Shown piece by piece: positions 4,367 to 55,192 of a DNA stretch of 64,000 bases (its first letter is position 1; every line of letters begins with the position of its first letter). The position numbers were made by a program, and so were the translations under genes. Source of the stretch: an uncultured Bacillota bacterium (lineage in GTDB: Bacteria > Bacillota_I > Bacilli_A > RF39 > UBA660); the NCBI GenBank assembly GCA_948466255.1, contig CAOJZV010000003.1:9722-73721 (forward strand), in the 5' to 3' direction. A model generated the notes under the pieces. It was not told the DNA's origin, made no database searches, and was given only the letters and a program-made list of their open reading frames with translations.

Positions 4367-6214
4367 ATGTGTGGTTTTTGTGGTTATATAAATAAAAAAG
4401 AAAAATCAAAAGAAGAAATTAAAAAAATGACTGATGCGATTAGTCACAGGGGTCCTGATGATGAAAACTATTATATTGATAACTTTATTGCGATGGGATT
4501 TAGACGTTTATCTATTATTGATTTAAAAAATGGTAGACAGCCTATGAGTAATGAGGATGATTCTATGGTTATTACTTTTAATGGTGAAATTTACAATTTT
4601 AAATCTATTAAAGAAGATTTAATTAGTAAGGGTCATATCTTTAAGACTAATGCGGACACTGAAGTTATTTTACATGGTTATGAAGAATATGGCAAAAACA
4701 TTTTAAGTAAATTACGTGGTATGTTTGCATTTGTTATTTGGGATAAGAACAAAAAAGAACTATTTGGAGCTCGTGATCATTTTGGTCAAAAACCTTTCTA
4801 TTATTGTAATATGAATGGAACTTTTATGTATGGCTCTGAAATTAAGAGTTTCTTATATAATTCTGATTTTATAAAAGAAGTTAATGAGGATTCTTTAAAA
4901 CCTTATTTAACTTTCCAAACTTCGGTATTAGAGGAAACATTCTTTAAAGGTGTTTTTAAATTATTACCTGGGCATTATTTTAAATATAATTTGGAATCTA
5001 ATGAATTTTTTACTAAGAAATATTACCAAATTGTCTTTGATGCGAAGGAGCAGGATTTTGATAGTTTAGTTAAAAAGATTGATGATACTATTACTTCTTC
5101 TATTGATACTCATATGATTAGTGATGTTGAGATTGGTTCTTATTTATCTGGTGGGATTGATTCATCTTATGTTGTATCTTATTTGAAACCTGATAAGACA
5201 TTCTCGGTTGGATTTGATTATAAGAATTTTAACGAAGTTCCTTTTGCGAAGGATTTATCTGATATGCTACATATTGAAAATATTAATGAGTTAATTGATT
5301 CTGACGATTTCTTTGATGTTATTGATAAGGTTCAATATTATGCGGATGAACCTACAGCTAATTTATCGGCTGTACCTCTATATTTCTTATCAGATTTAGC
5401 GAGTAAACATGTTAAGGTTGTTTTATCTGGTGAAGGTGCAGATGAATTATTTGGTGGATATACTTTTTATAAAGAAGATGATTTATTAATTAAATATCGC
5501 AAGTTACCTAAATTTTTGCGTAAGATGGTTAAAGGAATTGTTAGTCCCCTACCTGAGTTTCATGGTAAAAACTTCTTAACTAAAGGTGGAAGTAAAATTG
5601 AAGATTATTATGTAGGTAATGCCTTTGTATTTGATAATAGAGATGCGAATAAGGTTTTATCTTCTAAATATCAAAGTAAAGTTAAATTCCAAGATATTAC
5701 TAAGCCTTATTATGATGAAGTTAAGGATAAGGATGATTTAACTAAGATGCAATATCTTGATATGCATTTTTGGCTTCCAAATGATATTTTATTAAAGGCT
5801 GATAAAATGGCAATGGCTAATTCTTTAGAATTACGTGTACCTATTTTAGATAAGGAAGTTTTTGCATTAGCAAGTACTATTCCTAGTGAATATAAATTAT
5901 CACATGGAACTACTAAATATATTTTAAGACAGGCAGCTAGTTCTAGAATTCCTGAGGAATGGTATAAGAGACCTAAGAAAGGTTTCCCTGTTCCTATTAT
6001 TAAATGGTTTAGAGAAGAGAAATATTATAATTTAGCTAAGGAAATATTTAATGCTGATTTTGCATCTGAATTCTTTAATGTTAAAGAAATAAATAAAATG
6101 CTTGATGAACATTATAGTGGTAAAAAGAATCATTGTCGTAAGATATGGACTGTTTATGTTTTCTTAGTTTGGTATAAAACTTTCTTTGTAGATTTTGGTA
6201 AAAGTATGGCTTAG
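4367..6214 (+). CDS. asnB: Asparagine synthase (glutamine-hydrolysing), probably an AsnH-type peptidoglycan D-Asp amidotransferase
   Basis: N-terminal MCG Ntn nucleophile, HRGPD, RRLSIID, LSGGIDSS, SGEGADELFGGY; co-transcribed with the D-Asp ligase. Confidence 0.92.
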   Translation: MCGFCGYINKKEKSKEEIKKMTDAISHRGPDDENYYIDNFIAMGFRRLSIIDLKNGRQPMSNEDDSMVITFNGEIYNFKSIKEDLISKGHIFKTNADTEVILHGYEEYGKNILSKLRGMFAFVIWDKNKKELFGARDHFGQKPFYYCNMNGTFMYGSEIKSFLYNSDFIKEVNEDSLKPYLTFQTSVLEETFFKGVFKLLPGHYFKYNLESNEFFTKKYYQIVFDAKEQDFDSLVKKIDDTITSSIDTHMISDVEIGSYLSGGIDSSYVVSYLKPDKTFSVGFDYKNFNEVPFAKDLSDMLHIENINELIDSDDFFDVIDKVQYYADEPTANLSAVPLYFLSDLASKHVKVVLSGEGADELFGGYTFYKEDDLLIKYRKLPKFLRKMVKGIVSPLPEFHGKNFLTKGGSKIEDYYVGNAFVFDNRDANKVLSSKYQSKVKFQDITKPYYDEVKDKDDLTKMQYLDMHFWLPNDILLKADKMAMANSLELRVPILDKEVFALASTIPSEYKLSHGTTKYILRQAASSRIPEEWYKRPKKGFPVPIIKWFREEKYYNLAKEIFNADFASEFFNVKEINKMLDEHYSGKKNHCRKIWTVYVFLVWYKTFFVDFGKSMA

Positions 6215-40651: not shown

Positions 40652-40723
40652 CACCTCGTATATATCCTACGAGATTTATATAGTGATTTCCTTTTTATTT
40701 TTGAAATTTTTGTATATTTTTTT
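40652..40723 (-). repeat. Dispersed element copy 3; left copy of a 72-bp exact direct repeat
   Basis: cacctcgtatatatcctacgagatttatatagtgatttcc...gtatattttttt, identical to 41321-41392. Confidence 0.95.
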
Positions 40724-41320: not shown

Positions 41321-41392
41321 CACCTCGTATATATCCTACGAGATTTATATAGTGATTTCCTTTTTATTTTTGAAATTTTTGTATATTTTTTT
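41321..41392 (-). repeat. Dispersed element copy 4; right copy of the 72-bp direct repeat
   Basis: Identical to 40652-40723; its GAGGTG arm serves as the RBS of the PBECR-like gene. Confidence 0.95.
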
Positions 41393-41425: not shown

Positions 41426-41923
41426 ATGAATATATTAATTTATGCTGGAATTTTTATTTTTAAAGCGATTGAAGAAGCTCTTAGAACACTTCATATTATT
41501 GTTGTTTCTAATGGTAAAAAATGGCTTGGGGCGATTGTTCAATTTTTTGTAGCAATTATTTGGCTCGTAGTTACAGGTACGGTTATTGTAGACATTAAAG
41601 AAGATCCTTTGAAAATTTTCTTTTATGCGATTGGGTCTTTATTTGGTTCTTATTTAGGTAGTGTTTTGGAAGAAAAAATTGCTTTGGGTTATGTTGTTTT
41701 GATGGCTGAGGTAAGTGATGATGTAGCTAAGTCATTGATTATTAGACTTAGAAAAGCTAGATTTGGGATTAAAAGTGTTTTAGGAGGTAAAGAGGAAACA
41801 GTATTATTAATGATTACTGCAAAACGTAAAAAAACTGATGAGGTTATTGAAATCATCAGATCTTTTGATAAGGATGTAGAGATTATGACTGAAAGTGTTA
41901 ATATTGTGAAATCTCATTTATAA
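41426..41923 (+). CDS. DUF5698/DUF2179-like membrane protein
   Basis: IFIFKAIE..LRTLHII.V..G.K..GA...FF...IW, YAIGSLFGSY.G...EEKIALG. Confidence 0.75.
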   Translation: MNILIYAGIFIFKAIEEALRTLHIIVVSNGKKWLGAIVQFFVAIIWLVVTGTVIVDIKEDPLKIFFYAIGSLFGSYLGSVLEEKIALGYVVLMAEVSDDVAKSLIIRLRKARFGIKSVLGGKEETVLLMITAKRKKTDEVIEIIRSFDKDVEIMTESVNIVKSHL

Positions 41924-42533
41924 ATTCATGTATTTCTTTACTTTTATCAGTGATAATATTTGCTTTGTTTTTTATTTTATTAAATATTTCTTTATTATTT
42001 ATGGTCCAAGCAAAAGTCTCTTTTTTAGGGACTTTTTCTATATGTCTATAATTTACTGAATTAAAATCAAAATTATTTTCTAAATGATTTGTATTTAGTT
42101 TTATTCCGATAATTAAACCTGCTTTATATTTTGGATATCTTTTCTTTAGTGTTTCTAATAGTTCATAATTAAAACTACACAAATAATAATTTAAATTATA
42201 TTTTTTTAATAGTTTATTTAGTTTAATTAATAATAAATTATTATTTTTCTTTTCTTCTTTTATTTCTATTAATAATATTTTTTTTGAATTTATTTGTTCT
42301 AATACTTCTTCTAAGGAGTTTAATCCTTTTTTTTGAAGTATTTTTAATCTTGTTTTTTCTATATAATATCCAGCATAAAATGGATCGTGATGAATAACAA
42401 AATTATAGTCTTTTGTCATTCGTATATCTATTTCTATTCCATCTATATAGGGAATTGTTAAACTATTTAAAATAGCCTCCATTGTATTTTCTTTATGGAT
42501 TTCATCATTGGCTCTATGGGCAATTATTTTCAT
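41898..42533 (-). CDS. Glycerophosphodiester phosphodiesterase family protein
   Basis: IIAHRA, KENT, IEIDIR.TKD...VIHHD, IEIK, CSFN, AWTIN. Confidence 0.85.
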   Translation of the reverse strand: MKIIAHRANDEIHKENTMEAILNSLTIPYIDGIEIDIRMTKDYNFVIHHDPFYAGYYIEKTRLKILQKKGLNSLEEVLEQINSKKILLIEIKEEKKNNNLLLIKLNKLLKKYNLNYYLCSFNYELLETLKKRYPKYKAGLIIGIKLNTNHLENNFDFNSVNYRHIEKVPKKETFAWTINNKEIFNKIKNKANIITDKSKEIHEFINEISQY

Positions 42534-42552
42534 GGTTACACCTCTAATAAAG

Positions 42553-42589
42553 TATATGAAAAAAGAACAATTATTTATCTAATTGTTCT
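42553..42589. repeat. 37-bp exact direct repeat, left copy (terminator hairpin)
   Basis: tatatgaaaaaagaacaattatttatctaattgttct, identical to 45289-45325. Confidence 0.95.
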
Positions 42590-44462
42590 ATCTAGTTTTA
42601 CCTTGCTCTGGATTGTGTTCTACATAATTATCAAAATCAATCCATAAAGCGTTTCTCATATCCTGTTTTTCTTTTTCAGTTAAATTAGGATTATTATTGA
42701 TTTCTTGTTCTAATTTAGTATAACCTTCTAAATTTTGATCAACTGAATAATCTGGTGAAAGTTCAGGTTGATTTAATATTTCTTGACTTTCTTCTAATAA
42801 TTCTTGGGTCTTAGGTGAATATTCTGAATTTTTCTTCTTAATTATTTCATCTACTTGATCTTTTGTCAAATAGCCATATTGTTTTCCATCAGTTTTCTTA
42901 AGTTCCTCTGAAAGATTTTTTACTCTAGTTGCTTCATCCATAGGAACAATTTCTTCTTTAAAGTCTAAATTTTCTTCAGCTCGTGCTGTTATAGTACCAT
43001 TTGCAAGGCCTTCTGCAAGTTTAACGACATTTTCTTTTTTGGATTCTTCTACATCTAATTTCTGCTCCATATCATCATCTAATAAAATATTTTCAGCTTC
43101 TTTTGATATTTGAGAATTTAAATAATCAAACAAATCTACATATTGGTCTCTATGATAAGGTTCTTTTTCAAATTTTGTATTTGTATATGCATTTTTTCTT
43201 TCCTCTTCTAATTTAACTCTATCACAACTTTTTGCCATAGCTAATGCCATATCATCAGATAATCCATATATTTCTTGTTGTAATGCAAATAAATCTTTAT
43301 TTAATTCATCAATAGATTTTTCATCATATCTATGCTCATTAATAAAGTCTGTTCTTGTAATTTGAGATAGAGCTTGTTTTGCCTGCATAGCGATTTTTTC
43401 TTTTTGTGCCAAATCAAGTATAGATGTCTGTTGATGCTGATTATTAATAGCACTTGATTCTACTGCAATTTCCGTTTTTACATTTACGGATAAGTTATTT
43501 AAAAGTTCTACCTTTTTTTGCTCATATAACATTGGATCTTCAAGTTTCTCATCACTTAACCTTTTATTAAGAAGTTCTGCGACATATCCGCTCGTAAATA
43601 ATTCAAAGTATTTTTCATCTTTAATACCTAAATCATGTGCCCTATTAATTAATCCATTTATTGATGGATAAGTTTTTGTCACATCTTCATTAATTAAAGA
43701 CACAATCATAGCACTATTCATTAACGCTTCTTTAACTTCCTCCTCATTCATTTGCTCAAATAACCTATCCCATTCTTCATGATTTAACTTCCCGTATTTA
43801 TCTAATTCAGATTTTACCTCTTTCGGAAGCTCTTCCATATTTTCATTAATAGTAGTTAATCTTCTTTTTTTCTCATTAATTGTATCAGTAAGTTTATCAG
43901 CTAATTCATCCGCTTTTTCACCTGCTAAACTTGATTTTAAATTTTCCAAAGCTATTTCTGATTCAGTTATATCTTGAGTTAATTTTTGTTTAGTATCTGA
44001 TAACAAAGCATACATCCCACATTTAGCTGGTTGTGATGCTAAACGGCTAACTGAAGTCGCAGTATAGTTGCTTACCTTTGAAAAAATATCAACATACTTA
44101 GGTGTGCCCAATATCCATTTAATATTTTCTGGTAAATTACATAAAAGTTCATACTTTTTTTCTTCATAATCCCATTTACCATAGGCATTTTTTTTACTTA
44201 ATCTCTTATCTAAAAGTTCCGCAACATACCCATTTGTAAATAATTCATAACTATGACTATCATTAACATGCAATTGCTTCGCTCTTTCAAATAAACTGGT
44301 AATTGACGGATAACTTTTAGATACATCTTCATTAATTAAAATAGAAATTATATTTTTATCCATTAACATCTCTTGTATCTGTTCAGCATTCATTTGTGCA
44401 AATAATTTATCCCATTCTTCATGAGTTAAATTTGCATAATCTAATTCATTCATTTTACTCAT
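42588..44462 (-). CDS. 624-aa acidic hypothetical protein with two ~110-aa internal repeats
   Basis: Duplicated HEEWD.LF.QMN...INEDV.K.YPSI...ELFT.GYVAELL.KRLS...KK.ELL.NL; ends EQGKTR. Confidence 0.85.
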   Translation of the reverse strand: MSKMNELDYANLTHEEWDKLFAQMNAEQIQEMLMDKNIISILINEDVSKSYPSITSLFERAKQLHVNDSHSYELFTNGYVAELLDKRLSKKNAYGKWDYEEKKYELLCNLPENIKWILGTPKYVDIFSKVSNYTATSVSRLASQPAKCGMYALLSDTKQKLTQDITESEIALENLKSSLAGEKADELADKLTDTINEKKRRLTTINENMEELPKEVKSELDKYGKLNHEEWDRLFEQMNEEEVKEALMNSAMIVSLINEDVTKTYPSINGLINRAHDLGIKDEKYFELFTSGYVAELLNKRLSDEKLEDPMLYEQKKVELLNNLSVNVKTEIAVESSAINNQHQQTSILDLAQKEKIAMQAKQALSQITRTDFINEHRYDEKSIDELNKDLFALQQEIYGLSDDMALAMAKSCDRVKLEEERKNAYTNTKFEKEPYHRDQYVDLFDYLNSQISKEAENILLDDDMEQKLDVEESKKENVVKLAEGLANGTITARAEENLDFKEEIVPMDEATRVKNLSEELKKTDGKQYGYLTKDQVDEIIKKKNSEYSPKTQELLEESQEILNQPELSPDYSVDQNLEGYTKLEQEINNNPNLTEKEKQDMRNALWIDFDNYVEHNPEQGKTR

Positions 44463-45115
44463 TATATATCACTCTCTTCCTTATTTTCTAAATTAATTCT
44501 TTCTATATCAGTTACTTTTTTATTTTCATAAGTTATTTTATAAATATCAGGTGCTGATGGTGTTCCATTTAATATTTCTTTTCCATTAAAAGTAATATTG
44601 AATTTTTTTCCATCGAATGTTTGAGTTGCAATGCTTCCTAGATATGATAGTAATATTATTCCATGGATTACTACTGCAGTACTTTCTTTTTCACCATTTA
44701 ATACTTCATTAATGAAATTTTGTACTCTTTTATCCATATCATTAAAGGATTCATGAGTATTTAGTTTTAAATTTTTGTTGCCAAACATTTGCTTATTAAA
44801 ATCATCTGGCATTTCTCTATAATATTCTACATCAAAATCTATTTCATTAATTCTTTTATCTAATTTTATAGAAAGATTTTTCTTGTCTGCTAAATATTTT
44901 GCAGTAGCAATTGCTCTAGGAGAACTACTCGCATATAATTCATCAATATTATTTAATTCTTCTATATCGCAAAGTTTTTTCGCCTTTTCCTCACCTTGTA
45001 CTGATAAAATCATATTTCTATTATATTCTTCCCAAGGTACATTCTTATAATTTTCATAATTTTTAATATTCACGCCTGTCATTGAATGCCTTATCAAATA
45101 AATAGTTTTTATCAA
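44462..45115 (-). CDS. Histidine phosphatase family protein
   Basis: YLIRHS, LS..G, YASSSPRAIATA, LNTHESF, VIHG; TTG start with GGAGG RBS. Confidence 0.82.
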   Translation of the reverse strand: MIKTIYLIRHSMTGVNIKNYENYKNVPWEEYNRNMILSVQGEEKAKKLCDIEELNNIDELYASSSPRAIATAKYLADKKNLSIKLDKRINEIDFDVEYYREMPDDFNKQMFGNKNLKLNTHESFNDMDKRVQNFINEVLNGEKESTAVVIHGIILLSYLGSIATQTFDGKKFNITFNGKEILNGTPSAPDIYKITYENKKVTDIERINLENKEESDI

Positions 45116-45209
45116 TGTAACCCCTCCATTTTTAGTATTTGTAGTAATTCTTATATTACCATAACGAATAGCAACACTTTGTTCAATGTATATTTTACTT
45201 TATGAGTAT

Positions 45210-45244
45210 ATTATACCCCCCCCCCCCCCCCCTGGTTTTGGCAA
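45210..45244 (-). promoter_or_regulatory. SigA-type promoter with a G17 homopolymer in the spacer
   Basis: Minus strand TTGCCA (45239-45244), 23-bp spacer containing 17 G (C run 45216-45232), TATAAT (45210-45215). Confidence 0.7.
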
Positions 45245-45288
45245 GTGTTTTTGGGCATAAAATAGCACAAGGGGTAAAAAAATGTAAA

Positions 45289-45325
45289 TATATGAAAAAA
45301 GAACAATTATTTATCTAATTGTTCT
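45289..45325. repeat. 37-bp exact direct repeat, right copy (tmk terminator, overlaps the tmk stop)
   Basis: Identical to 42553-42589; contains the last codons of tmk (EQLDK*). Confidence 0.95.
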
Positions 45326-45990
45326 TTAACGTATTCATATACATCTTTGTTTATATCTTCGATTGTTCTTATTTCTTCATTTGCACATTCTATTGTTTTA
45401 AAGTTATATTTATCTGCAAGTTCAATATAAGAATTTTCAGCATGTATTAGATGATTTGTATCTTTTTCATGTTCATCTGGAGCTTCTTCTACTCTACCTG
45501 CTTTTAATTCTTTAGCTTTTTCAGTTGGCATATGAAGAAATATTGCGATATCTGGACGAGGTAATTCTAAAAGTTCAAATTCTAAATTAGCTAGCCAATC
45601 ATACATTTCTAATCTTTCTTTTTTGTCTTCTATTTTTCCACCTTGGTGTGCCATATTAGAATATATATATCTATCTAATATTATATTTGCACCCTGTTCT
45701 AACAAAAAGTTTATTTTATCAATATTATACTTTCTATCAGCAGCATAGTAAAGTGAAGCTACTTTTGGATCTACATGAGTAGCACCTTCTTTGAAAAGAC
45801 TTGGTCCAATTTGAGGTTTTCCTAGATATGCGCCACCGATAATTTTTCCGGTCGGAGAATCATAATTTGGAAAACTAAAATTATCTACTTTTATGCCAGC
45901 TTCTCTTAATTTTTTTATTAGTAGTTTTGTTTGTGTTTCTTTTCCTGAACAATCTGTTCCTTCAATAACTATTAATTTACCTCTTGCCAT
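45307..45990 (-). CDS. tmk: Thymidylate kinase
   Basis: IVIEGTDCSGKETQ, FPNYDSPTGKII, LYYAADR, LDRYIYSNMAHQG, PRPD. Confidence 0.9.
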   Translation of the reverse strand: MARGKLIVIEGTDCSGKETQTKLLIKKLREAGIKVDNFSFPNYDSPTGKIIGGAYLGKPQIGPSLFKEGATHVDPKVASLYYAADRKYNIDKINFLLEQGANIILDRYIYSNMAHQGGKIEDKKERLEMYDWLANLEFELLELPRPDIAIFLHMPTEKAKELKAGRVEEAPDEHEKDTNHLIHAENSYIELADKYNFKTIECANEEIRTIEDINKDVYEYVKEQLDK

Positions 45991-45992
45991 GG

Positions 45993-46481
45993 TTATCTCC
46001 TTTTATATAAAACGTGTTTAAATTTAATTCCTGTTTTTTCGTCCTTAAAATGTGTGAGTTCTGTTCTATCAAAATCTTCTTTATTAAAATTTGGAAAATA
46101 TACCTCAGCTTCTTTATCTTCAGCATCTATTTCAGTTAAATAAAGTTTATTTGCATATTCTAATAATTCCTTATATATTGAAGCTCCTCCAATATCGAAA
46201 ACTTCGTCCTCAATATCTTTATAAGCTTCTAAAAACTCTTCTACACTTTGATAAACTTCTACTTCTTCTGGAAATTTTAAATTACTACGTGTTAAAACTA
46301 GATGTTTTCTACCTTCTAATAATTTAGGTAATGACTCAAATGTTTTTCTACCCATAATTATATGGTGTCCCATAGTCATTTGTTTAAAAAATTTCATATC
46401 TTCTTTAAAGCGCCATATTAAATCATTGTTTTTTCCAATTTCGTTATTTTTGCCGACAGCTACTATTAATGATAAGTTCAT
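45993..46481 (-). CDS. folA: Dihydrofolate reductase
   Basis: IGKNNDLIWRFKEDMKFFK, IMGRKTFESL, IGGASIY, YLTEI. Confidence 0.93.
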   Translation of the reverse strand: MNLSLIVAVGKNNEIGKNNDLIWRFKEDMKFFKQMTMGHHIIMGRKTFESLPKLLEGRKHLVLTRSNLKFPEEVEVYQSVEEFLEAYKDIEDEVFDIGGASIYKELLEYANKLYLTEIDAEDKEAEVYFPNFNKEDFDRTELTHFKDEKTGIKFKHVLYKRR

Positions 46482-46492
46482 AAGTTCACCTC

Positions 46493-47527
46493 TTACTGTG
46501 CGATTGGAAAACTAATTTTTCCATGATGTTTATAATTTAACACTTTAACATCTTTGCATTCTTTTGAATGATCAAAATCATAAAAATCGGTTACTTCAGG
46601 ATTTATCCATACCTCTGGAGCTGGTAAATCTTCAAGTTCTTCGCCTCTTTTGATTTGTTCTTTTATTCCTTCTATTTGATTTACATATATGTGGGCATCT
46701 TTAATACTCCAGTCTAGTATTCCAGGCTCTAAACCTGTTACCTGAGCAAGCATATGAAGTAGTACTGAATATTGTGTAACATTAAATGGAAGTCCTAGCG
46801 GAACATCACAACTTCTTTGATGTACCCAAGCATTTAATTTTCCATCTGTTACATCCCATTCACTTGACCAAACACATGATGGAAGTACTGCTGTTCTTAA
46901 ATAGTCATTTTGCCATAAACTAATTATTCTTCTTCTATCATTTACATTATTTTTTAAACTATCAATTAGATGATCAGTTAATTTAAAACGATTTACAATA
47001 TAGCCGTAAGCTGTTCCTATTGTATGAGCGTATTCTTTTCCATAATATTTAGCTTCAATAATATTTTTTTGTTTTTCACCATTATATAAACTTTTAGTGG
47101 TCATTGGAGTTCCAAGTTCATCGCATTTAGCTTTCAATTTTTTGTCATAATCTTCAGGTGGTACACTAAGTGGATCTAAAACTAAAACTTTTTTATCTTG
47201 TTGAAATGGTGTTTCCATGCCTTCTTGTTCATATAAGCGATAAATACCATCTTCATCAATTTCCCATTCATCCCAAATATGAACATTTCTTTCTTGTAAC
47301 CATCTTACATCGTTACTTTGTACTTGATAAATCCAAAGCATTTCTAAAATAGCTTGTCTAAAGAAAAGCTGTTTGGTTGTAAGAACTGGGAATTCTTCTT
47401 CAAAGTCGAAGTGGAAGTGATGTGAAGGCACTTTTATAGTGTTTATTCCTGTTCTATTTTCAACTTCTTTGCCCTCTTCTAATATTCTTTTACATAATTT
47501 AAGATATTCTTTATCCCATTTTGACAT
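46493..47527 (-). CDS. thyA: Thymidylate synthase (long form with insertion)
   Basis: NRTG, PVLTTK, IWDEW, RRRII, LPSC, QRSCDVPLGLPFN, DAHIY.N. Confidence 0.93.
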   Translation of the reverse strand: MSKWDKEYLKLCKRILEEGKEVENRTGINTIKVPSHHFHFDFEEEFPVLTTKQLFFRQAILEMLWIYQVQSNDVRWLQERNVHIWDEWEIDEDGIYRLYEQEGMETPFQQDKKVLVLDPLSVPPEDYDKKLKAKCDELGTPMTTKSLYNGEKQKNIIEAKYYGKEYAHTIGTAYGYIVNRFKLTDHLIDSLKNNVNDRRRIISLWQNDYLRTAVLPSCVWSSEWDVTDGKLNAWVHQRSCDVPLGLPFNVTQYSVLLHMLAQVTGLEPGILDWSIKDAHIYVNQIEGIKEQIKRGEELEDLPAPEVWINPEVTDFYDFDHSKECKDVKVLNYKHHGKISFPIAQ

Positions 47528-53361: not shown

Positions 53362-53383
53362 AAAAACTACGAATAATCGTAGT
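53362..53383. repeat. 22-bp exact direct repeat, left copy (terminator hairpin)
   Basis: aaaaactacgaataatcgtagt, identical to 55171-55192. Confidence 0.9.
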
Positions 53384-55170: not shown

Positions 55171-55192
55171 AAAAACTACGAATAATCGTAGT
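55171..55192. repeat. 22-bp exact direct repeat, right copy (sodA terminator)
   Basis: Identical to 53362-53383; overlaps the last base of the sodA stop. Confidence 0.9.

Follow-up and report, generated by a model that had tools for sequence, protein, structure and literature searches.

The locus analysed here raises the question of how two genes without any mobility function came to lie between two exact copies of a host gene's terminator. The window is a 64,000-nt stretch of contig CAOJZV010000003.1 from an uncultured gut bacterium of the Bacilli. In it, a 2.7-kb two-gene insert is found between the thymidylate kinase gene (tmk) and a GDPD-family gene, and each end of the insert is closed by one copy of the tmk terminator. 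The islet is lineage-specific, occupies the 36-nt gap between these two genes and is devoid of defined ends. The genome amounts to 1.05 Mb in 32 contigs and is 68% complete. The features of the locus are as follows.

45307..45990, minus strand: tmk, thymidylate kinase (Pfam PF02223, E = 3e-24), the upstream host gene
45289..45325, minus strand: right (tmk-proximal) 37-bp copy, a hairpin including the last six tmk codons and the stop, U6 and CAUAUA
45210..45244, minus strand: poly-G phase-variable promoter of the cargo, read from the sequence; 18 copies of the module in the genome
45116..45209, minus strand: conserved leader CATTGAAyAAAGTGT..TATTCGTTAT.. and ribosome-binding site
44462..45115, minus strand: cargo gene 1, a 217-aa histidine phosphatase (branch 1; PF00300, E = 7e-19)
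42588..44462, minus strand: cargo gene 2, a 624-aa acidic orphan protein without a family match
42553..42589, minus strand: left (GDPD-proximal) 37-bp copy, which gives the AG of the cargo stop and the cargo terminator
41898..42533, minus strand: GDPD-family gene (PF03009), the ancestral downstream neighbour of tmk

The 37-mer TATATGAAAAAAGAACAATTATTTATCTAATTGTTCT is exact at 42553-42589 and 45289-45325, and these are its only two copies in the whole genome (1,054,624 bases, 32 contigs). When it is started at 42550/45286, the repeat is lengthened to 40 nt with one mismatch. On the tmk (coding, minus) strand, the right copy reads ...V-K-E-Q-L-D-K-stop. The hairpin AGAACAAUUA-GAUAAA-UAAUUGUUCU is formed over these last codons and is followed by U6 and CAUAUA. 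RNA folding gave -11.5 kcal/mol (z = -5.6) for the right copy and -10.1 kcal/mol (z = -3.6) for the left copy. The 624-aa ORF ends with ...GKTR-TAG, and the AG of its stop codon is provided by the first two bases of the left copy. Behind this copy stands the ancestral CTTTATTAGAGGTG, the ribosome-binding region of the GDPD gene. By this reading, the right copy still terminates tmk and preserves its last codons, while the left copy serves as the cargo's terminator and gives the GDPD gene back its original upstream context. Therefore, both host genes are left intact. Terminal inverted repeats are absent from the cassette, where the inner ends aligned with a score of 14 against a shuffled mean of 13.3. 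The Pfam search of the insert revealed no mobility function, only one His_Phos_1 protein and one protein without a match. The first-pass annotation had described the exact 37-mers, the last tmk codons and terminator in the right copy, the end of the cargo TAG and a new terminator in the left copy, and a cassette with neither terminal inverted repeats nor a recombinase. All of these observations were confirmed. An assembly artefact was rejected because both repeat copies surround related cargo in two independent JGI assemblies (L044 and L046). The samples behind the contigs L044-L047 are JGI 3300006145, 3300006147, 3300006149 and 3300006217.

The cargo promoter consists of a -35 element TTGCCA (45239-45244), AAACCA, a G17 tract (45216-45232) and a -10 element TATAAT (45210-45215). 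Its spacer is 23 nt here, and a G11 tract would make it 17 nt. The tract is G11 in L044 and G12 in L045, and the promoter is deleted in L046. Judged from its letters, this poly-G promoter would drive the histidine phosphatase gene together with a fast-evolving orphan gene. The leader is common to five other poly-G promoter units of the genome. When all the poly-G units tested were inspected for terminator duplications, the tmk unit alone was so bounded. For cargo gene 1, all NCBIfam matches were far under the curated cut-offs, PADLOC gave none, and the substrate is unassigned. The 624-aa protein is internally duplicated in tandem (642-nt period) and has the C-terminal tail ...NPEQGKTR. It has no Pfam, NCBIfam, PADLOC or PHROG match, and only 14 relatives were found among 1.8e9 representatives. 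The search for cargo orthologues in 150 other genera of the family and 64 congeners gave partial domain matches only. The same two ORFs are present in contig L043 with 96.6% identity over 2,530 nt. There they are preceded by HU, LysR and two further genes, both their promoter and their terminator are different, and the homology to the islet ends at the start codon and 7 nt past the stop. Comparison with L043 and with the other poly-G modules pointed to short microhomology at both junctions, which is too short for scoring. The insert thus appears to be a mosaic of host-type parts, not a unit with fixed ends.

In order to understand the origin of the duplication, the state of the site in relatives is informative. 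Orthologues of tmk were found in 36 of the 37 genomes searched (other genomes of the genus and two more distant relatives). In at least nine related lineages tmk adjoins a GDPD gene, and most of them carry a single clean copy of the repeat. The GDPD gene lies 36-58 nt after tmk in G007, G010, G031, G032, L049, L060, L089, L090 and L095, with G031 and G032 showing this adjacency in the absence of the hairpin. A single clean copy at tmk is present in the lineages P0004, P0005, P0006, P0007, P0014, G007 and G010, and empty tmk sites were also seen in L049-54, L060, L089, L090-93, G007 and G010. The Logan contig L095 aligned to the window twice, and the overlap between the two alignments is exactly the 40 nt of the repeat. 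Its sequence is identical to the tmk side, one repeat and the GDPD side, and this is exactly the predicted empty site. The right copy aligns to the single copy of the empty-site relatives, and the flank downstream of the left copy is identical to the L095 empty site. The hairpin arms carry compensatory substitutions between species (G010 and P0014). Pattern scans for the hairpin found G007 only among the genome contigs and no match in two scans of metagenome contigs. The expectation that relatives without the cargo have one clean copy of the repeat was borne out at tmk and likewise at sodA, as described below. It is supported that the tmk islet is a true insertion which duplicated its target terminator.

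A second lineage (L044) has the same structure. Its identity to the window is 82-92% through most of tmk, and near-identity starts about 100 nt inside that gene. From about 45423 it rises to 97-100%, and it stays so over the repeat, promoter and His_Phos gene. The middle of the cargo could not be aligned. Over the left repeat and the GDPD gene the identity is again high (93-100%), and farther out it is lower. Since the near-identity begins inside tmk, the islet spread by homologous recombination in the flanks and not at the repeat. In this one traced case, the islet was thus transferred from one related lineage to another through recombination of the core genes at its sides, and parts of its interior were exchanged by the same process. 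Contig L045 was set aside as evidence. In this contig another gene stands upstream of the cargo, joined to it exactly at the poly-G tract, and the contig is possibly an assembly chimera.

The same architecture had been claimed for sodA, with a 22-bp repeat, and it was verified there. The repeat AAAAACTACGAATAATCGTAGT is exact at both of the following positions and is also a terminator hairpin.

55171..55192, minus strand: sodA-proximal 22-bp copy, the sodA terminator hairpin and U5
53362..53383, minus strand: distal 22-bp copy, which closes a 1.8-kb islet with SLFN/AlbA_2 and HATPase_c_4 genes

Single-copy empty sites at sodA were found in G007, G014, G212 and others. The SLFN cargo also occurs at another site (G009), where it has no flanking duplication of its own. 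On the scale of the genome, 99 local exact repeats of at least 22 nt and 53 of at least 30 nt were counted, mostly in paralogues. Five third-order Markov simulations of the genome yielded 0-1 repeats of at least 22 nt and none of at least 30 nt. Therefore, the repeat is not a product of chance. A strong hairpin is present in 9 of the 19 isolated local repeats against a background of at most 8% (P ~8e-6), so that the architecture recurs in this genome, as the first-pass annotation had claimed. The duplication lengths in this genome vary from 22 to 107 nt and therefore fit a process without a fixed stagger. Four cassettes were tested against 65 congeners, and clean empty sites were obtained for two, tmk and sodA only. 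The C21 cassette (AbiE, 107 nt) had no clean empty site, its flanks not being syntenic, and neither had the C10 cassette (Fic, 36 nt), whose ylqF-lepB slot is hypervariable. Among the 11 cassettes searched for terminal inverted repeats, the insertion sequence described below was the only positive one.

Our best explanation, which we hold to be somewhat probable, is that the accessory islet is an insertion with long target duplication, founded by a rare recombinational event and not by a hairpin integrase. One candidate for the founding would be a Campbell-type insertion-duplication of a circularised fragment on short homology. The other would be a template switch during replication, in which synthesis departed from the chromosome at one side of the terminator and returned to it at the other. 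Events with a duplication that does not cover a whole terminator would afterwards be lost by selection. The empty gap is 36-37 nt and is almost all terminator. Therefore, a tolerated insertion that duplicates 20-40 nt must duplicate the terminator. Of the hairpin targeting proposed earlier, the recurrence of hairpin-overlapping duplications stands, and the targeting itself may be survivorship. At a later stage, recombination or slippage between the 37-bp copies could delete the islet cleanly. On the other hand, a homology of 22-40 nt is near or under the usual lower limit of RecA-dependent Campbell integration, which speaks against this explanation.

Another possible author of the duplication is resident in the genome. 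An IS30-family (IS1630-like) element is present as one complete copy (C6:24523-25548) and ten contig ends, and its 304-aa transposase has HTH_38 and a weak rve match under the Pfam cut-off. This transposase, which cuts at both feet of terminator hairpins when its own element inserts, might have acted in trans on the cargo. Alternatively, an insertion sequence might first have produced the order terminator-IS-terminator and have been replaced by the cargo at a later time. Its five resolvable target duplications (20, 21, 21, 24 and 31 nt) each consist of exactly one terminator-like hairpin, and the duplications at sodA (22 nt) and C1 (23 nt) match them in size and shape. IS1630 itself makes variable 19-26-bp duplications (as cited in PMC2853133). 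Comparable evidence is provided by a second IS30-type element in the congener G012, each of whose three copies is flanked by repeats of about 15-16 nt. Because these repeats have their first few bases in common, the actual duplication probably amounts to 11-13 nt. However, IS30-family transposases need their own terminal repeats. The resident element has inverted ends, and neither its inverted-repeat cores nor its fragments were found inside the cassettes, nor any insertion-sequence relic in the tmk islet. Its duplications are symmetric about the hairpin to within 1 nt, whereas at tmk the duplicated segment goes 11 nt past the hairpin on the U-tract side and falls 2 nt short of it on the opposite side, and the duplications of C10, C4 and C21 reach 11-75 nt beyond the hairpin. 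The element is also rare in the genus (6 of 65 genomes), although insertion sequences are under-recovered in MAGs. Taken together, an origin from this transposase is unlikely. An inverted-repeat match at C6:48070 was discarded as a chance one inside polC.

A further reading is rather improbable but has some observations on its side. In five cassettes the 5' edge of the duplication lies 0-4 nt from the foot of the hairpin. Such edges are tidier than a random-breakpoint model would give and hint at structure-specific cutting, against recombination followed by selection. An activity of this kind would cut both feet of the extruded terminator and join DNA without ends, and terminators would then be general sites of gene capture. 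The resident IS30-family transposase in trans could be this activity, or another nuclease could. Because a hairpin-duplicating transposase exists in the same cell as clean islets, recombination with selection and structure-specific cutting can be tested against each other.

The repeats could also be attL and attR of an integrative element at the 3' end of tmk that lost its integrase, like a CIME, or that was moved by XerC/D in trans. Insertion by an integrase typically leaves direct repeats at a gene's 3' end with the gene restored, identity segments of 20-100 nt are known, and the 10-6-10 geometry of the hairpin resembles a recombinase core site. However, in none of at least 12 related lineages was an integrase found at this site, which is empty or, in one lineage, holds an rve-type insertion sequence. 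The genome has no serine recombinase (at 68% completeness), and its two tyrosine recombinases are Xer-sized and located elsewhere than the islet. The compensatory arm changes are the behaviour of an RNA terminator and not of a protein-binding site, and the other duplicated hairpins have 4-5-nt loops. The cargo is composed of host-type modules, and the traced transfer crossed inside tmk instead of at the repeat. We therefore consider an att origin quite improbable.

Only a slight chance is given to the reading that nothing was duplicated at insertion and that the cargo's own related terminator was homogenised to that of tmk by short-patch gene conversion. The L043 cargo terminator, AAAACACTTC-AAAA-GAAGTGTTTT, agrees with the tmk hairpin in 7 of the 10 positions of the stem, and the 8-mer ACTTTATT behind it also follows the left copy here. 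However, this similarity is weak, and its estimated joint chance of about 1e-4 was chosen post hoc. The sodA loops also suggest concerted evolution or mixed ancestry: the two G228 copies share stems and differ in their loops (TTGC and ATAA), while both loops are TTTC in G030 and ATAA in this genome. The mixed G228 loops are as easily explained by a recombination tract that ended between the copies. Furthermore, the two copies at tmk agree in all 37 nt, the edges of the identity are sharp, and 18 nt of it belong to the tmk coding sequence. Integration of the Cas1/casposase type, which the first-pass annotation had brought to mind, is hardly credible, since its resemblance to CRISPR repeat duplication is formal only (a palindromic repeat duplicated around inserted DNA), whereas the genome (68% complete) has no Cas1, terminal inverted repeats are missing from the cassette, the duplications vary in length (22-107 nt), and the cargo is built of host modules.

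The islet does not represent an unknown category of insertion. Although seldom noticed, insertions of this kind have been described before. Furuta, Abe and Kobayashi 2010 (PMC2853133) reported target duplications of 30-500 bp around gene units without mobility genes, for instance 46-bp repeats overlapping gene 3' ends in H. influenzae, with most cases in naturally competent species. Their definition comprises an empty collinear relative in which both repeats align to a single copy, a repeat of >30 bp that is unique in the genome, an insert of <20 kb without a mobile-element gene, and cargo screened for restriction-modification. The tmk islet has collinear empty relatives, and both of its repeats align to the single L095 copy. 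Its repeat is 37 bp in two copies only, its insert is 2.7 kb, and no mobile-element gene lies in or beside it. Its cargo is His_Phos_1 and the orphan instead of a restriction-modification unit, and the 22-bp sodA repeat is under the length threshold (>30 bp). The tmk islet and the published insertions are alike in the lack of a mobility gene, in direct repeats with one copy in the empty genome, in the uniqueness of the repeat and, in some, in its overlap with the 3' end of the upstream gene. The published cases are restriction-modification units, mostly in Proteobacteria, whereas the cargo here is a phase-variable pair of a phosphatase and an orphan, and the host is a gut bacterium of the RF39 type in the Bacillus class. 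In addition, the duplicated target here is precisely an intrinsic terminator, and several such islets are present in this single 1-Mb genome.

Insertions with long target duplication are among the few routes to gene gain without a recognisable mobility enzyme. To our knowledge, their mechanism has never been established. This genome is an unusually clean example, with an exact empty site, exact repeats, a traced inter-lineage transfer and several sister cases. By means of the islet, a gut bacterium with a small genome added a phase-variable accessory operon while two housekeeping genes 36 nt apart were undisturbed. If terminators are indeed gene-capture sites, they would be ready-insulated expression slots in reduced gut Bacilli, with a full terminator on each side, and their use would be the mechanism behind the 25-year-old puzzle of long target duplications.

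The islet can further be compared with several known systems. IS1630 of Mycoplasma fermentans and its IS30-family relatives similarly insert at terminator-like inverted repeats, which become duplicated in full (19-26 bp), and the IS1630-like element active in this genome makes 20-31-bp duplications. These elements carry a DDE transposase and terminal inverted repeats. The tmk islet carries neither, and no HTH_38 plus rve transposase was found inside it with Pfam. Their duplications are symmetric, whereas that of tmk includes the whole hairpin and is skewed 11 nt to the U-tract. The CIMEs of Streptococcus thermophilus are integrase-less segments that lie between short direct repeats at a host gene's 3' end. 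They have a conserved core, and relatives with an integrase occur at the same site. In contrast, the lineages examined here contain no integrase-bearing relative, and the repeat changes in the manner of an RNA hairpin. In Neisseria, minimal mobile elements are varied cassettes in one conserved gap that are exchanged by transformation and flank recombination, and the tmk islet and the sodA slot were seen to behave in this manner. A flanking target duplication is not one of the defining features of minimal mobile elements. Campbell-type insertion-duplication, as used in laboratory mutagenesis, leaves homology, insert and homology, the same topology as the tmk islet, and normally needs >37 bp of homology. 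An integron cassette needs IntI and attC and has no promoter, whereas the present cargo has its own promoter in a genome with just the two Xer-sized recombinases. A gene for a prepilin-type N_methyl protein is also present in the neighbourhood.

The 2.7-kb tmk segment is enclosed by two copies of an exact 37-mer, TATATGAAAAAAGAACAATTATTTATCTAATTGTTCT, at 42553-42589 and 45289-45325 (40 nt if one mismatch is allowed). No other copy was found in the genome (1.05 Mb, 28% G+C, 32 contigs; the window is C3:9722-73721). The features of the locus are, in gene order:

45307-45990, minus strand, tmk
45289-45325, minus strand, right repeat, directly 3' of tmk
45210-45244 (promoter), minus strand, promoter and leader between the right repeat and the His_Phos_1 gene
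44462-45115, minus strand, His_Phos_1 gene, 217 aa
42588-44462, minus strand, gene for a 624-aa protein without a family match
42553-42589, minus strand, left repeat, between the 624-aa gene and the GDPD-family gene
41898-42533, minus strand, GDPD-family gene

On the coding strand, the repeat forms a 10-6-10 hairpin that takes in the end of the tmk reading frame (K-E-Q-L-D-K-stop); U6 and CAUAUA come next. The two copies fold at -11.5 and -10.1 kcal/mol (z-scores -5.6 and -3.6). The last two bases of the TAG stop of the 624-aa gene are supplied by the left copy. Comparison of the insert ends revealed no inverted ends, and the Pfam search of the cargo revealed no recombinase. The exact two-copy duplication of the tmk terminator around an integrase-less insert, described in the first-pass annotation, was thus confirmed.

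In the congener genomes G007, G010, G031 and G032, tmk adjoins the GDPD gene with a gap of 36-58 nt. The same adjacency was found in contigs of five further lineages located via tmk homologues (P0004, P0005, P0006, P0007 and P0014), and most of these genomes and contigs carry a single hairpin copy. In contig L095, the tmk side runs through a single repeat into the GDPD side, letter for letter as in the window genome, and when L095 is aligned to the window, its two matches have exactly the 40-nt repeat in common. The tmk segment is an insertion and its empty site exists, with the single clean copy that had been expected in relatives lacking the cargo. In the G030/P0011 lineage, the same hairpin is abutted by another insert, which carries a split rve-type transposase; several contigs break at the tmk hairpin and four end exactly in it. 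The closest species-level relative (L055:6684-8336, Logan SRR33454298, and G030:C55) has the tmk terminator, about 470 nt of non-coding sequence and then the split rve-type transposase on the opposite strand.

The tmk islet belongs to a known descriptive class, insertion with long target duplication. The class comprises gene units without mobility genes between 30-500-bp flanking repeats, which align to a single copy in the empty genome (PMC2853133). Some of its examples overlap gene 3' ends, and most come from competent species (PMC2853133). Since then, the term has been applied almost exclusively to restriction-modification units. The tmk islet shares all the structural features and differs in cargo type alone.

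Similar duplications recur in the genome. Markov-simulated genomes contained 0-1 local exact repeats of at least 22 nt and none of at least 30 nt. Nine of the 19 isolated exact local repeats of at least 22 nt hold a strong hairpin, against a background of at most 8% in random windows (P ~8e-6). The duplications are therefore more frequent than chance. One of the nine flanks an IS. The others bound islets, whose cargo includes an AbiEii pair, a Fic protein with a wHTH protein, an ABC transporter, an S41 peptidase, a radical-SAM gene, a PBECR3 nuclease and SLFN/HATPase_c_4 genes. The PBECR3 nuclease is a 92-aa protein, and its gene, which precedes a DUF1016/YhcG gene, lies between exact 72-nt repeats (89 nt at 94%) with a hairpin at 40652-40723 and 41321-41392; the unit is missing in the JGI contig L044, where alignment is lost at ~41321-41374. 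The sodA case, a 22-bp repeat around the SLFN/HATPase_c_4 islet, was compared with 65 congeners, and the claim of a common architecture held. The flanks abut with one hairpin in G007, G014, G212, G019 and others. In G030 and G228, the slot holds other cargo of about 0.8 kb, MazF-like as read from the translation, between two copies of their own hairpin version. Beside one hairpin copy, 200 nt of this cargo are common to the window genome. The hairpin loop pairs are TTTC/TTTC in G030, TTGC/ATAA in G228 and ATAA/ATAA in the window genome. The empty sites and the different cargo indicate that the sodA terminator bounds a slot with exchanged content. In G009, where a homologue of the SLFN cargo occupies a different locus, no repeat flanks it, and no clean empty site was found for cassettes C21 and C10. 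At C10:6174-7715, the gap from ylqF to lepB-rplS ranges over 0.5-8 kb among the 65 congeners; in the window genome it holds a GNAT gene and the Fic/wHTH pair between 36-nt terminator repeats.

A recombinational origin of the tmk islet is moderately probable. The founding event would be an insertion-duplication or a template switching, then filtered by selection. The duplication does span the terminator, but the hairpin targeting proposed earlier may be only apparent, since terminator sequence fills nearly the whole 36-nt gap. As an alternative, the resident IS30-family transposase, which cuts hairpins, may have taken part in the founding event. This 1,026-bp element (complete copy C6:24523-25548, flanked by a repeat at C6:24498/25548) has 20-nt inverted ends, an HTH_38 domain and a weak rve match below the Pfam cut-off. 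Ten contig ends stop in its copies (C2, C4, C5, C7, C13, C15, C20, C25, C30 and C31). Pairing of the ends resolved five insertions, whose target duplications measure 20, 21, 21, 24 and 31 nt; the shared duplications link C2-C7, C15-C31, C25-C5 and C30-C4. Every duplication corresponds exactly to one terminator-like hairpin and is symmetric to within 1 nt; the multicopy element is inserted only in such hairpins and duplicates them whole, as reported for IS1630 (cited in PMC2853133). In contrast, no IS-type ends or IS fragments were found in the cassettes, and their duplications are skewed. They start at the hairpin 5' foot or further upstream and continue as much as 14 nt beyond the U-tract, and three end at a TATAAT box. 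Selection for two complete terminators and the promoter of the downstream gene would leave such a skew. The resident enzyme therefore duplicates hairpins but does not fit the cassettes, and its involvement is unlikely. A second IS30-type element (388 aa) occurs in G012 in three identical copies (C1:306459, 462441 and 852271; L081, L086 and L088). Its 15-16-nt flanking direct repeats differ at each copy apart from the first few bases, so that only 11-13 nt may have been duplicated. IS30-family elements may make long duplications throughout the genus.

A decayed integrative element is improbable. Stem positions of the tmk hairpin carry compensatory changes in G010 and P0014, as an RNA terminator would and a protein-binding site would not. 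Terminator homogenisation by gene conversion is slightly less probable. The genome, recovered to 68% completeness, encodes two Xer-sized tyrosine recombinases; neither a serine recombinase nor Cas1 was found in it, and the analogy with Cas1 is without support.

The islet promoter reads TTGCCA-AAACCA-G17-TATAAT. The module ACTTGCCAAAACCA-Gn-TATAAT occurs in 18 copies in the genome (n = 11-22), every one about 40-75 nt downstream of some terminator. It is followed by one of two conserved leader types, the second in the tmk islet. Other sites include C11:12795, 21094 and 31035, C12:4434 and 16990, and C8:20150. The family has a conserved upstream element, TTTACAyATTTT..CCTTAAAA, in this 28% G+C host, and mostly drives signal-peptide proteins starting MRRRRRK; tract length at one locus varies between samples. 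In the islet promoter, the tract is G11 in L044 (optimal 17-nt spacer) and G12 in L045, and the promoter is deleted in L046. From these tract-length differences (G17, G11, G12, deletion), the islet unit appears to be phase-variable and off in the window assembly. In L046, the -35 element is lost together with the poly-G tract (deletion at 5560-5600). At L045:1040-1110, a possible assembly chimera, the tract is joined to another -35 (TTGACG) and to a different gene upstream.

Both islet ORFs recur in L043, an NCBI MAG contig, with 96.6% identity over 2,530 nt. The gene order there is HU, LysR, two unknown genes, the islet pair and an AraC-type gene. Its promoter (TGTTATAAT) and terminator are unlike those of the tmk islet, and homology is confined to the stretch from the start codon to 7 nt beyond the stop. 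Among 1.8 billion representative proteins, only 14 are related to the 624-aa protein; partial domain matches occur in a few congeners, again with His_Phos genes nearby. By the genome-wide promoter module, the L043 recurrence and the congener matches, the islet is a mosaic of clade-native parts rather than foreign DNA bringing ends of its own. A G(K/R)TR C-terminus is found on several unrelated accessory proteins (window 42588-42650, C4:2352-3878, C22:2684-3217 and C3:58945-59373). The 624-aa protein and another cassette's S41 peptidase have a C-terminal module in common, S-x-(K/E)-T-(Q/R)-(E/D)-(L/I)-L...LN, which could act as a signal for export or docking.

The JGI contigs L044, L046 and L047 represent a lineage with flanking genes 82-92% identical to those of the window genome and with thyX in place of thyA-folA. 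The order tmk-repeat-cargo-repeat-GDPD is kept, with identical 37-mers and the same mismatch at position 38. Identity to L044 was computed window by window. It is 82-92% over most of tmk, and 97-100% from about 45423, inside tmk, across the repeat, the promoter and most of the His_Phos gene. The cargo centre gives no usable alignment (492 aa vs 624 aa), and the left repeat and GDPD gene are 93-100% identical. Because identity steps inside tmk and is lost at the cargo centre, the crossovers of the islet exchange lay within the flanking genes rather than at the repeat, and the interior was replaced separately. The earlier interpretation was only partly right: the insertion does duplicate the terminator, but the class was already known, and the mobility traced here is ordinary homologous recombination in the flanks. 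Directly upstream of tmk, thyA and folA are present in the window genome, P0004, P0006, P0011 and P0014, and thyX in L044, P0005, P0007 and G007. Comparison of window 45993-47527, L044:7687-8481, L049 and L003 identifies this as analogous gene displacement at one locus.
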